A stretch of DNA of 32,000 bases from Geotalea daltonii FRC-32 (GCF_000022265.1 NC_011979.1:3390001-3422000); one strand, 5' to 3'; numbered from the stretch's first letter, positions 29,138 through 32,000 are shown. A program made the numbers and translations. Notes: generated from the sequence alone by a model not told the origin.

Positions 29138-29932
29138 CTAGTTAGAATTATCTTGTTTTTGAACTATCGCAGGGTTAGCTACCTGAAGGGAACTTGGGCC
29201 ATATCGGTAGCAATAGATAGAATATAGAAGTCCATCGAATGCAGCATTTTCGAATGGATTAAACTGAACTTTCGAATGTAAGATCATTGCTTTTCTAATG
29301 GTCTGAAGGAAGAGGGAAAGTGACTTGAGCTTAGGGCCTTCCTTGTCTTCACCTTCAATCGGAATATGACCCCATTCTTCGTTAGTTGAAGGACTCTTGA
29401 GAATAATAATTCCACGGTTCAGCACGTATATTGCCCACGGATAATTCTGTAATTCATCAGGGATGTCGGTGACAGAGTCGTACCAAGCTGACAATACCTT
29501 TTGAGTGAGCGGGACGCTCTCGTAGGCAAACAAGAACGTCGCCGGTGGAACGAATATGGATCCTCGTGTGAACGAGTACAAGTTGCGAAGCGCTTCGATA
29601 AATGTCTTCTTATTTAGTTTGGTTTTTACCTCGATTGCGCAGACTATTGCCTCTGGAGCAACAACCGCAAAATTACCCTCTCGAAAGTGGTATGCTGCCG
29701 GATTGTTCTCATCAACAATCAGAATGTCGCCTTGCTGTGACGCACCGAATTTCCTAGTGTAAGCGAAACCTGTCCGAAGCCGAAAACGTTCTGAGAGCAT
29801 GCTTTCTAGTATCGGCTTGAGAACTTCTTCGTGATACGAGCCAATTGACGGCCCGTGATTCACAAACGAAGAAACTCGCCGCAATTTAGCAGCCATTTCG
29901 TTTGCAAGTCCTAGGTAGAAATTTTCGTCCAT
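29138..29932 (-). CDS. DUF6602-family protein, predicted PD-(D/E)xK nuclease fold
   Basis: GSYHEEVLKPILESMLSERFRLRTGFAY...SQQGDILIVDENNP....VVAPEAIVCAIEVKTKLN matches the DUF6602 pattern as I recall it (GxxxE..., Q.DIIIYD, E-V-K). AAGGA RBS. Confidence 0.7.
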   Translation of the reverse strand: MDENFYLGLANEMAAKLRRVSSFVNHGPSIGSYHEEVLKPILESMLSERFRLRTGFAYTRKFGASQQGDILIVDENNPAAYHFREGNFAVVAPEAIVCAIEVKTKLNKKTFIEALRNLYSFTRGSIFVPPATFLFAYESVPLTQKVLSAWYDSVTDIPDELQNYPWAIYVLNRGIIILKSPSTNEEWGHIPIEGEDKEGPKLKSLSLFLQTIRKAMILHSKVQFNPFENAAFDGLLYSIYCYRYGPSSLQVANPAIVQKQDNSN

Positions 29933-29941
29933 GGGTTATCC

Positions 29942-30002
29942 TTCTAACGGGCATGGCTTTGACCTGCCGGTTTTCTAGGGCAGGTCGTAAGCCTTGTTGA
30001 AA
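29942..30002 (-). repeat. attC-like recombination site (61 nt)
   Basis: TTTCAAC-AAGGC-TTACGACCTGCC-(10 nt)-GGCAGGTCAAAG-CCATGCCC-GTTAGAA. It ends 9 nt before the DUF6602 start codon. Confidence 0.6.
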
Positions 30003-30070
30003 CATTTGCAGTTTTAACTTTTGAAATTTAGAGGCGCAGACCTTCTTCCGTGATCTAACAATTCTTGTGT

Positions 30071-32000
30071 CTAGCGATTCCATTCCTTTTTAAGGACTTT
30101 ATCAGAAGCTTGAATTGCCCTATCTCGTGGAGTTGATACACCAAAATCGAGCCAGTGAATTACATTATAATATTGTTGTTCATCACTAGACATATAGTCT
30201 GCAAGAAGCTTTATTAAGCGCTTCTTTGTTAACGCACGAATGCATTTTAAAGCTATACACTTTCGAACTTTTTCGTCCTCATATTGCAGCAGACGGATAA
30301 TAGTTTCATCTGTAAGTTCGCGAAAGGCTTTGTCCGGTGTCTCAACTATAAGGTAGGACAATAGCTGGCTTGGCAGCTGCATTGACAGCAGTTCTGTTAA
30401 TCTATTTCGGCCCAATGCATATATAGCTTTTGCAGAAACTTGATATTTAGAGTCTTCAGGGGTTGATAATAACAGAGTGTTTTGTCCGGCCTCCGGCCGT
30501 TTCACAGAGTCGATAATTAATTTGATGTCCTCCCATTCACCAAATTTACGAAGATACTCAACATCAGTGCTGGAGTAGTCAACAAAGCCACTCTTTAGAG
30601 CATTCCTTACAAGTCCCAAGTCCCGCAACTCGGCTTTTTGACAAATAATGTTTAAGCCCTTTCGAGTGAGACTTTTACGTTGATAATCTTCGATGCCTCG
30701 TGTCCGTTCTATAACCTCATGGTCCATAGTAAAAATTTCGGACAGCTTATTCAGATAATTTGAAAACTCCTCTTTGAATTGTTCCTCTACTGATTTCCTT
30801 AAAATATCTCCTCTTTTTTTAAATTGACGTTCAGCCAAGATGAACTTGGGGTCAAAATCAAAAATTGAGGATTTTTCGGTAATTTTTTCAAGTTCCTTTT
30901 CACTTGTTAAACGCAATGTATGATGTTGGTAGTGATTCCAATATGTTTCATCAGTTATTCCTGAAGCGATGGAAAGCATTCCTAAACCGGATTTTTGAGA
31001 TGGTTTGACAAGAATTTTTTTGGCTTCGTCATTTGAAAAAGTACGGCCGTGTTCAATGAGAGTATTAATAGCTTCATATCTTACCTTTGCATCGTTGTCG
31101 CACAACAATTGCTCTACGGTATCAAGTGGCAATGCTTTGCGTTTACGAAGAATCTCTATAGCTTTACGACGTACATTATTGCATTGCTGATCAATGCAGC
31201 TAATAAGTGATTCCGTGCTCAACGCTGCTTCATTGTCAAATAGTGCTATCATTAAATCTTGGTGGACAAATGATGGCCGAAGTTCATTAAGCGCCAAAAT
31301 CGCACATTCGCGGCTTTCACGAAGTTTAATTCGGAGGAATGCATCAGTAGCAGCATTATTTGTTTGATTGTCATTCCTGTCTAGCTCGGCACGGATAATC
31401 GAAATATCTGAAGTAATGCCAAACTCGCCAAGATAATTCAAAGCTGCAACCCTAAGCGCACTTTTAGAGTTGTCAGAAAACCAAGATTTAAGTAAAAAAT
31501 CGCGATTAAAACGTTTTCCACCGGAGGGAAGTGGCTCTGAAATCAGCTTCATCGCAGTGATAGCGTTGATTCGTCGTTCCGTAGGCCCTTTAAATGTGTA
31601 AAATGGCAGAATACTATTTGAAAACTCTCCCATTGCTGCCAGCCATCGCCAAAGAGGAACATTCTCATTGCTAAAGTTACTCAACCCACTGGCAACCAGC
31701 CCGCTTATTTCATGTTGGCCCAATTTAAATTTATCTCCTTTTGCAAACATCAGGTTTGAATCGTGAACACCAAGAGAGTACTCATCATTTCCATGTTTAC
31801 CTAATATTGTTGTGAGCAATCTAAATCGTGCGATTTCTGCACCTTCAATGGGTTCTTGTTCTAAATCCCGCTCCGTTTTTGATATGAAGTCTCGCAGAAA
31901 TTGAGCACCTTCTATGGAAAGTGGTGTTTCGAGAGGTTGTGCATTTGCATCTGATGTTTGTTGTTTTTCATCTTCACTAGGTGGGGCTTGGCTCTGGCTA
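30071..32000 (-). CDS. large HEAT-repeat protein; 5' end lies outside the window
   Basis: The frame is open from 32000 to the stop at 30071 (643 codons in the window). The track start at 31819 is an internal TTG. Repeated HEAT/PBS-lyase-like units are present (LRVAALNYLGEFG, VRRKAIEILRK, DAKVRYEAINTLIEHG, DEKVRKCIALKCIRAL). A low-complexity linker PPSEDEKQQTSDANAQP at the window edge suggests a further N-terminal domain. Confidence 0.7.
   Translation of the reverse strand, partial: SQSQAPPSEDEKQQTSDANAQPLETPLSIEGAQFLRDFISKTERDLEQEPIEGAEIARFRLLTTILGKHGNDEYSLGVHDSNLMFAKGDKFKLGQHEISGLVASGLSNFSNENVPLWRWLAAMGEFSNSILPFYTFKGPTERRINAITAMKLISEPLPSGGKRFNRDFLLKSWFSDNSKSALRVAALNYLGEFGITSDISIIRAELDRNDNQTNNAATDAFLRIKLRESRECAILALNELRPSFVHQDLMIALFDNEAALSTESLISCIDQQCNNVRRKAIEILRKRKALPLDTVEQLLCDNDAKVRYEAINTLIEHGRTFSNDEAKKILVKPSQKSGLGMLSIASGITDETYWNHYQHHTLRLTSEKELEKITEKSSIFDFDPKFILAERQFKKRGDILRKSVEEQFKEEFSNYLNKLSEIFTMDHEVIERTRGIEDYQRKSLTRKGLNIICQKAELRDLGLVRNALKSGFVDYSSTDVEYLRKFGEWEDIKLIIDSVKRPEAGQNTLLLSTPEDSKYQVSAKAIYALGRNRLTELLSMQLPSQLLSYLIVETPDKAFRELTDETIIRLLQYEDEKVRKCIALKCIRALTKKRLIKLLADYMSSDEQQYYNVIHWLDFGVSTPRDRAIQASDKVLKKEWNR

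Follow-up and report, generated by a model that had tools for sequence, protein, structure and literature searches.

Geob_3127 and Geob_3126 of Geotalea (Geobacter) daltonii FRC-32 are best read as two unrelated, self-sufficient single-gene anti-phage units that became neighbours by chance in a cluster of attC-like sites (probability roughly 0.8). This reading draws on their domains, folds, catalytic motifs and attC flanks, and on the absence of co-occurrence elsewhere, all shown in this analysis. Judged by architecture, Pfam family and motifs, Geob_3127 is most likely of the Vulcan type and Geob_3126 of the Damona type. Both genes are on the minus strand of the 32,000-nucleotide stretch analysed here (the window), where the following features were identified:

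30071 to 32000, minus strand: Geob_3127, C-terminal 642 codons and stop of an 827-aa protein (translation; full ORF in contig L001)
29942 to 30002, minus strand: attC-like site at the Geob_3127/Geob_3126 boundary (repeat and pattern search, DNA fold)
29138 to 29932, minus strand: Geob_3126, DUF6602 protein of 264 aa (ORF list, Pfam)
29141 to 29147, minus strand: R''-like box TTCTAAC, at the 3' end of the DUF6602 ORF and overlapping its final codons (sequence)
27645 to 29127, minus strand: IS110-family element of 1483 bp (Pfam DEDD_Tnp_IS110 and Transposase_20; contig L118)
26963 to 27547, minus strand: orf194, a 194-aa ORF, next cassette (ORF list)
about 26905 to 26968, minus strand: second attC-like copy (repeat and pattern search, DNA fold)
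26124 to 26188, minus strand: tentative and weaker attC-like site, behind the next cassette's ORF (sequence)

The initial annotation had described two adjacent, co-directional ORFs: a HEAT-repeat protein of more than 640 aa, with an acidic linker before the repeats and its N-terminus outside the window, and a 264-aa DUF6602 protein with a D...ExK nuclease core. It had also placed an attC-like site at 29942-30002 and an adjoining IS at this locus. All of these elements were borne out.

The Geob_3127 frame is open for 642 codons, from position 30071 to the end of the window, and the complete sequence of 827 aa was read from an identical Logan contig (L001). The 185 N-terminal residues beyond the window form a DUF4062 domain. 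The full protein consists of a DUF4062/NIR TIR-like domain (residues ~5-189), an acidic disordered linker and a HEAT solenoid (residues 214-826). Pfam DUF4062 (PF13271) matched with an E-value of 2e-8, exceeding the gathering score, and the PADLOC profile PDC-S60 matched residues 5-187 with an E-value of 5.5e-33; the repeats were recognised by Pfam HEAT_2 (E 1.9e-11 and 6.8e-11) and also by Pfam HEAT. The acidic/polar linker, SQSQAPPSEDEKQQTSDANAQ, opens the in-window part of the protein, and residues 183-208 are disordered in the AlphaFold2 model (pLDDT 82.4), in which residues 6-189 form five beta-alpha units and residues 214-826 an all-alpha solenoid. Foldseek matches of the model included PP2A-A, alphaRep, SF3B1 and karyopherins, and a PDB profile search returned alphaRep as well. 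The solenoid dominates the Foldseek search with the full 827-aa model, so that the N-terminal domain obtained no TIR match of its own. More than 790 relatives were found at E <= 1e-5, and the best 120 of these are nearly all full-length, at about 820 aa. Residues F11, W49-E50 and E97/E98 are invariant in the family, the two glutamates across 26 members and within the motif S-G-F-E-E-E-F; they correspond to F11, W51-E52 and the catalytic Glu of DUF4062. The catalytic residue of characterised DUF4062 systems is E98 in Vulcan, E97 in KpSwz and E87 in Eva01 (10.64898/2026.09.04.749371, 10.64898/2026.05.01.722283, 10.64898/2026.06.25.731849), and its equivalence to E97/E98 of Geob_3127 is taken from motif position, not from direct alignment. 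Geob_3127 holds its own effector, a predicted DUF4062/NIR NADase at the N-terminus, and therefore needs no separate one. A domain lost at the edge of the window, in this case the NADase effector, can overturn the interpretation of a locus.

Vulcan has been described as a NIR domain fused directly to HEAT repeats, a protein that works on its own by depleting NAD+; the protein tested was WP_050009967.1 from Enterobacter roggenkampii, with lambdap79 as activator (bioRxiv 10.64898/2026.09.04.749371). Geob_3127 resembles it in the direct fusion of an N-terminal DUF4062/NIR domain to C-terminal HEAT repeats, in the invariant Glu 97/98 of its family, which matches the catalytic E98 by motif position, in its mobile or defence contexts and in standing alone, at least by the genomic proxy that no neighbour recurs in 80 loci. 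It differs from Vulcan in its host, a Geobacter relative, and in the attC-like sites that flank both Geob_3127 and the relative at 82%. A tblastn search against plasmids for the Vulcan reference yielded no Enterobacter match. Swarozyc and Evangelion, two single-gene DUF4062 NADase systems (bioRxiv 10.64898/2026.05.01.722283, 10.64898/2026.06.25.731849), share with PDC-S60 and Geob_3127 the same N-terminal DUF4062 core, with its F11, W-E and catalytic-Glu motifs, and the combination of an effector and a variable auxiliary sensing region in one polypeptide. Their C-terminal auxiliary regions, however, are not the HEAT solenoids of the Geob_3127 family, and only the first 182 of the 906 positions of the PDC-S60 profile match Geob_3127. 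As a Vulcan-type unit, Geob_3127 would use its HEAT solenoid as the presumed sensor, binding a phage protein; the activated NIR/DUF4062 domain would then hydrolyse NAD+, leading to growth arrest (abortive infection).

Geob_3126 matches Pfam DUF6602 with an E-value of 8.8e-23 and contains the motifs GDILIVD and AIEVKTKL. Its residues D69, D74, E75, E101 and K103 are invariant among 33 homologs. Secondary matches were obtained with the PADLOC profiles for PD_DExK (E 4.1e-21) and for NucC effectors (E 2.2e-11 and 4.6e-9), and a PDB sequence search also led to NucC. When the AlphaFold2 model (pLDDT 88.8) was submitted to Foldseek, the best 14 matches were all NucC and covered the full length (~240 columns, E ~1e-11). 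The restriction-endonuclease fold is shared throughout with NucC (PDB 6P7O, 6P7P, 6Q1H, 6UXF, 7ZGV; TM 0.55-0.65), whereas sequence identity amounts to 13-17%. D69, E101 and K103 align with D73, E104 and K106 of the NucC active site, which is of the ID-x30-EAK type. Geob_3126 is most likely a full-length NucC-like PD-(D/E)xK nuclease with predicted catalytic residues D69 and E101-V-K103.

The DUF6602 gene is probably a single-gene integron cassette, flanked by canonical attC sites in its orthologs, whose contexts are cassette arrays. A canonical GTTRRRY box lies 17-55 nt ahead of the start codon in seven orthologs (L003-L006, L008, L013 and L127), and several have a RYYYAAC box that runs into or adjoins the stop codon, as TTCTAAC does in Geob_3126. 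In one of these loci (L004) the DUF6602 gene is framed by two of eight attC sites, all of which point the same way. A Vibrio cholerae homolog (P0176), 42% identical over the N-terminal 176 aa (E 2e-39) and divergent from Geob_3126 in the C-terminal third, resides in the superintegron arrays of four strains with different neighbours in each. Damona itself is a DUF6602 cassette from the chromosomal integron of V. cholerae N16961; this single gene protects against phage, and it matches Cas PD_DExK and CBASS endonuclease profiles. It was cloned alone in integron-less V. cholerae or E. coli MG1655, the protective host being unspecified (bioRxiv 10.1101/2024.07.02.601686). The comparison with Damona was made by way of P0176, a V. 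cholerae integron DUF6602 protein that is not verified as Damona; another candidate, P0209, was rejected, its context being metagenomic and prophage-like. Geob_3126 shares with Damona the DUF6602 domain, the same secondary Cas PD_DExK and CBASS NucC-type matches and the form of a single-gene integron cassette for a protein of ~260-270 aa; host and attC type differ. As a Damona-type stand-alone NucC-like enzyme (D69/E101/K103), Geob_3126 would presumably cleave DNA once infection triggers it. For both units we infer anti-phage activity, NAD+ depletion or DNA cleavage, and what the triggers would be, from published homologs. The locus provides a non-Vibrio case, in a Geobacter relative, for integron cassettes as stores of compact anti-phage genes.

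The similarity to NucC also admits a different reading, in which Geob_3126 would be an orphan NucC-type effector that does no phage sensing of its own and responds to a cyclic oligonucleotide supplied in trans, from elsewhere in the genome, by a CBASS or type III CRISPR system. The full-length structural match and the common active site are in keeping with this proposal, as are the CRISPR-associated nature of the PADLOC PD_DExK profile and the presence of R49, an invariant residue that aligns with R53, a cA3-phosphate contact of NucC. It is nonetheless unlikely: the position of the adenine-stacking Y81 of NucC is occupied by N or H in DUF6602 proteins, and the C-terminal half of Geob_3126, corresponding to the T226/V227 pocket and the H136/Y141 gate loop, is not alignable to NucC by sequence. 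Moreover, within 6 kb on either side of 12 close DUF6602 orthologs there was no shared neighbour and no recurring cyclase (CD-NTase) or Cas10 gene, and the related Damona was protective when cloned alone. There is likewise a small chance that DUF6602/Damona-type nucleases at large are orphan NucC-like effectors with an allosteric nucleotide pocket, served by a second messenger in trans, a reading suggested because the R53 equivalent is invariant. The messenger could originate from a CBASS or type III CRISPR system resident in the host or, in this strain, could even be the product of the neighbouring NIR NADase; if this were true, integron cassettes would be plug-in effectors for signalling immunity.

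The site at 29942-30002 forms an imperfect palindrome of 61 nt, whose DNA fold has an energy of -13.4 kcal/mol (z = -4.2), with an R''-like TTTCAAC, stems of 8 bp and 5 bp and an R'-like GTTAGAA that lies 12 nt ahead of the DUF6602 start codon. Its position and geometry are as in the canonical attC sites flanking the DUF6602 orthologs. The second copy, at about 26905-26968, is 87% identical to the first and contains the boxes ACATAAC (R'') and GTTGGAA (R'); its DNA fold has a z of -5.8. An R'-like box, GTTAAAT, is found 3 nt ahead of the orf194 start codon. The tentative site at 26124-26188 has TTCCAAC as R'' and GTTAGGA as R', the latter 8 nt ahead of the next start codon, and its fold is not significant (z = -0.7). 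Two occurrences of the attC-like core pattern were counted in the window, where shuffles give an expectation of 0. Altogether, four attC-like sites were recorded, all in one orientation and all at ORF boundaries, one of them at the KAP/HEAT gene boundary; two of them fold significantly, and one has the textbook R/spacer/L geometry but measures only 48 nt. Each is one base off the RYYYAAC or GTTRRRY consensus. An in-house attC scan (R boxes plus constrained DNA fold), kept out of the statistics, recovered the two 61-nt copies together with one likely spurious intragenic match and missed the weaker sites.

The IS110 element begins 13 nt beyond the R''-like TTCTAAC at 29141-29147, which is presumed to be the 5' end of the DUF6602 cassette's own attC, interrupted by the IS. 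With the IS removed in silico, the empty target gave no single-hairpin fold, and the 3' attC of the DUF6602 cassette was not recovered from it. A two-gene cassette made of the DUF6602 gene and orf194 was envisaged because, without the IS, both genes lie between the closest attC-like sites that are intact; it was discarded on the grounds that none of the DUF6602 loci contains orf194 and that the orthologs have their attC at the stop codon. No integron integrase was found in the 32-kb window, nor in the ~10 kb upstream of the DUF6602 gene covered by L001, which reaches ~7 kb past the window edge. If the sites are real, the locus is an attC cluster without integrase (CALIN-like) in an accessory region of G. 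daltonii. The arrangement suggests that attC-like sites can enclose even a 2.5-kb NIR-HEAT gene of the Vulcan type.

The lack of a nearby integrase and the imperfection of the attC-like sites would suit a locus with no part in defence. The HEAT protein would then serve as a housekeeping scaffold and the DUF6602 protein as a nuclease of DNA repair or of restriction type, and the hairpins would be ordinary terminators or REP-like repeats. This seems very improbable in view of the hairpins, which lack T-runs and end in GTTRRR boxes just ahead of start codons, as in true cassettes. In addition, both families include experimentally validated defence members, both genes show a patchy distribution across mobile settings (integron arrays, tRNA-adjacent sites and integrase-linked islands), and the gene upstream of Geob_3127 is a full-length PADLOC PDC-S49 candidate. 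The defence-island setting proposed in the initial annotation is plausible. An Rfam search of the window gave no match.

The two genes were not found together at any other locus searched. A tblastn search with the 827-aa protein gave no match in 34 genome loci containing DUF6602 relatives, 30 of which extend at least 1 kb upstream, and a HEAT-family profile HMM detected none of its members in 39 DUF6602 loci. With the threshold set at E <= 1, the DUF6602 profile HMM gave no match across the 80 metagenome loci that contain HEAT-family genes, of which 46 extend downstream and 49 upstream by 900 nt or more. As a control, both HMMs recovered their own gene in locus L001. No gene family recurs beside either gene, with the exception of a tyrosine integrase (four HEAT loci). 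The closest HEAT homolog (82%) is preceded by the same R' box and 5' UTR, and its upstream neighbours differ. With this locus and the 82% relative excluded, a GTTRRRY box lies upstream in 3 of 77 HEAT-family genes, about as expected by chance, indicating that other HEAT-family genes are not cassette-borne.

The idea put forward in the initial annotation, of an obligate module joining a HEAT sensor to a DUF6602 effector, is not supported by these results, and the ground for refutation named there, that the genes are never together elsewhere, came true in the loci searched; the conservation of DUF6602 neighbourhoods with HEAT partners was checked, and no conserved neighbour emerged. The accompanying caveat, that the genes could be two independently mobile cassettes, is the alternative favoured by the evidence. 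No named system had been recognised, which holds for the pair because it is not one system, whereas each gene taken separately fits a described single-gene type. NucC-type nucleases are normally effectors that depend on an upstream signal generator, and TIR-like domains make nucleotide signals in some systems (Thoeris). A scheme in which the HEAT protein detects infection and switches on the neighbouring nuclease is extremely improbable: such signalling, the 138-nt spacing, the common direction of the genes and the R49/R53 alignment would fit, but the counts of 0/39 and 0/80 loci, the attC-like recombination site between the genes, the different upstream neighbours of the 82% homolog despite its retained R' box and 5' UTR, and the ability of Damona to function as a single gene all speak against it. 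Functional cross-talk confined to this strain could still occur, as the lack of co-occurrence at other loci is not strict proof against it. The result chiefly averts a false lead: what looked like a new sensor-effector system, a repeat protein beside a small nuclease, is most likely two autonomous units.

Beyond the DUF6602 gene, orf194 had no match in Pfam, PADLOC or NCBIfam. The IS110 element has a 237-nt 5' non-coding region and encodes a 399-aa DEDD transposase at 27691-28890. Contig L001 stops 30 nt inside this element, and a collapsed repeat contig, L118, matches positions 27645-29127 exactly.

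Two ORFs at the right of the window, whose products are identical (100%) to Geob_3126 and Geob_3127 of Geotalea (Geobacter) daltonii FRC-32, had been proposed in the initial annotation to form a candidate two-gene defence module in which the HEAT protein is the sensor and the adjacent DUF6602 nuclease the effector. Their setting is as follows:

1 to about 24,400: core chromosomal genes (mutL, miaA, pepN, cytochromes, PAS sensors)
from about 26.1 kb to beyond the window end: accessory stretch
27645-29127: IS110-family element, 1483 bp, exact match to a collapsed repeat contig
29138-29932, (-): Geob_3126, DUF6602 protein of 264 aa (Pfam DUF6602, E 8.8e-23)
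30071 to window edge, (-): part of Geob_3127 inside the window, 642 open codons (Pfam HEAT_2 and HEAT)

The features called initially (the DUF6602 ORF, a HEAT ORF of more than 640 aa, its acidic linker, its N-terminal domain beyond the window, an intervening attC-like site and an adjoining IS) are all present; the pairing did not hold. It was tested both ways, by seeking HEAT relatives in DUF6602 loci and DUF6602 in HEAT loci. No Geob_3127 relative was found by tblastn in 34 genome loci encoding DUF6602 relatives (up to 67% identity), and a HEAT-family profile HMM had no match in DUF6602 loci, including five further ones. Conversely, none of 80 metagenome loci with a gene related to Geob_3127 (33-58% identity; at least 900 nt of flank downstream in 46 and upstream in 49) contained a DUF6602 match at E <= 1. 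In a control locus the HEAT and DUF6602 HMMs each retrieved their own gene. Neighbour clustering revealed no recurrent neighbour of DUF6602 in 12 close loci, DUF6602 itself being the sole common family, and no recurrent partner of the HEAT gene, whose commonest neighbour was a tyrosine integrase (4 loci). That the two genes do not occur together elsewhere is an outcome that the initial annotation had itself listed as refuting its proposal. Geob_3127 and Geob_3126 are probably two autonomous single-gene defensive units rather than a two-gene system, and their side-by-side position is a product of cassette or island dynamics. Likened by architecture, family and motifs, Geob_3127 appears Vulcan-like and Geob_3126 Damona-like. 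Both kinds have been described only recently.

The 5' end of Geob_3127 was recovered from L001, an identical Logan contig extending past the window end, giving a protein of 827 aa that opens with a DUF4062 domain of ~185 residues. A search at E <= 1e-5 turned up more than 790 relatives; among the best 120 listed, nearly all are full-length (~820 aa). The structural model (pLDDT 82.4) comprises a five-unit beta-alpha domain (residues 6-189), a disordered acidic linker (183-208) and an all-alpha solenoid (214-826) matching PP2A-A, SF3B1, karyopherins and alphaRep. Residues F11, W49-E50 and E97/E98 are invariant in Geob_3127 and its family, in agreement with reported DUF4062 motifs, and the N-terminal domain scores E 5.5e-33 against PDC-S60, a PADLOC single-gene candidate. 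Geob_3127 therefore already holds its own predicted effector. DUF4062, renamed NIR, is the TIR-like NADase of the single-gene defence systems Swarozyc and Evangelion (10.64898/2026.05.01.722283, 10.64898/2026.06.25.731849). Vulcan, a direct NIR-HEAT fusion, protects alone, depletes NAD+ and depends on E98, with a small phage protein as its trigger (bioRxiv 10.64898/2026.09.04.749371). The HEAT region of Geob_3127 is likely to be the sensor for its own effector domain.

The AlphaFold2 model of Geob_3126 is confident (pLDDT 88.8). Its best 14 PDB matches are all NucC, the cA3-activated endonuclease of CBASS and type III CRISPR (~240 columns, E 8e-12 to 6e-9, TM 0.55-0.65), followed by the restriction enzymes BbvCI, SgrAI and NgoMIV. 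Profile alignment to E. coli NucC, with residue roles from 10.1101/694703, places D69, E101 and K103 on the active-site residues D73, E104 and K106, and R49 on R53, which contacts a cA3 phosphate. The initial reading of DUF6602 as PD-(D/E)xK nuclease-like is therefore correct, and the predicted fold resembles that of NucC in particular. Conservation does not extend to Y81, the adenine-stacking residue of NucC, and the C-terminal pocket is not alignable. In genomic setting Geob_3126 departs from NucC, lacking any association with a cyclase gene or type III CRISPR locus (no such neighbour recurs in 12 close loci).

DUF6602 orthologs are repeatedly single-gene integron cassettes. Those in L003-L006, L008, L013 and L127 have a canonical GTTRRRY box 17-55 nt 5' of the start codon, and several orthologs carry an RYYYAAC box that touches or overlaps the stop codon. 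In L004, a locus from a betaproteobacterial MAG, eight attC sites (integron cassette recombination sites) share one orientation, and two of them enclose the DUF6602 gene. Four V. cholerae strains have a homolog (42% identity over 176 residues, E 2e-39) in their superintegron arrays, with differing neighbours. Damona, a single-gene anti-phage cassette from the chromosomal integron of V. cholerae N16961, has a DUF6602 domain together with matches to Cas PD_DExK and the CBASS small endonuclease (bioRxiv 10.1101/2024.07.02.601686); Geob_3126 gives the same secondary matches in PADLOC. At L127:4161-4655, a DUF6602 cassette (63% identical) shares an array with a resolvase and a PycTM-domain protein (Pycsar-type effector domain), a further hint that such arrays gather defence effectors.

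Four attC-like sites in Geotalea share one orientation and all lie at ORF boundaries:

L001:7304-7351: KAP-NTPase / HEAT, 48 nt, fold z -1.5
window 29942-30002: HEAT / DUF6602, 61 nt, fold z -4.2
window 26908-26968: orf194 / next ORF, 61 nt, fold z -5.8
window 26124-26188: next ORF / orf129, 65 nt, fold z -0.7, weak

The KAP-NTPase / HEAT site has paired R boxes, unpaired spacers of 6 nt and an L stem with one extrahelical G. The 29942-30002 site has a copy of 87% identity at 26905-26964, the core pattern being seen twice against zero expected. A HEAT homolog of 82% identity (L125) has the R' box GTTGAAC and 5' UTR in common with Geotalea but diverges upstream of the crossover point, where its genes differ; this pattern reads as the signature of a cassette boundary. 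Among other HEAT-family genes GTTRRRY occurs upstream in 3/77, about chance, and several adjoin tRNA genes or integrases; elsewhere, to judge from these flanks, the family is not cassette-borne. Neither the window nor L001 contains an integron integrase, which leaves at most an integrase-free attC cluster. The IS110 element lies 13 nt past an R''-like box located where the DUF6602 ORF ends; the two flanks of the element, joined in silico, did not refold into an attC site at the cassette 3' side.

A palindrome (27599-27659; 19-nt arms, 89% complementary) spans the right end of IS110 (27645), the last 15 nt of the element (TCAGCCCTTGAAAAA) pairing with flank about 35 nt further on; it might be a feature of the target site or a trace left by an earlier copy. 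In keeping with what is known of IS110-family elements, a bridge-type guide RNA might be encoded in the element's non-coding 5' region (237 nt), which had no Rfam match.

The cassette ORF that follows the window's second attC-like site (26197-26890, (-)) looks like a circular permutant of the acyl-carrier-protein fold: the N-terminus corresponds to ACP positions 38-76 and the C-terminus to 1-40, with a likely membrane-embedded hydrophobic stretch between the halves. The permutation breaks the fold where the cassette boundaries lie. Because a longer ORF call (start 27003) runs across the attC-like site, translation probably starts at an ATG near 26889.

A 157-nt direct repeat (20278-20434 and 23161-23317; 99% identical; no Rfam match) flanks a 2.9-kb segment that encodes an OmpA-like protein and a PAS histidine kinase. 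The end of the repeat is also present in shorter copies (AAAAGCACCCTTTCCGGATGCGAAACTATTTA) at 20234 and 20415.

Two further genes precede the HEAT gene (L001:4736-7258, about 2.5-5 kb past the window's right edge, (-) in window orientation). The one next to it encodes a 580-aa KAP-family P-loop NTPase, a full-length match (E 1.1e-72) to PDC-S49, a single-gene defence candidate of PADLOC. With HEAT and DUF6602, at least three candidate defence genes are thus consecutive. The 239-aa protein preceding the NTPase looks membrane-associated by eye (hydrophobic stretches). The 520-nt intergenic region that separates the gene for a giant fibronectin-III repeat protein from the first gene of the island contains four copies of AATATTAGATGC-like words (L001:4440-4610), which may serve as binding sites or mark the edge of the island.
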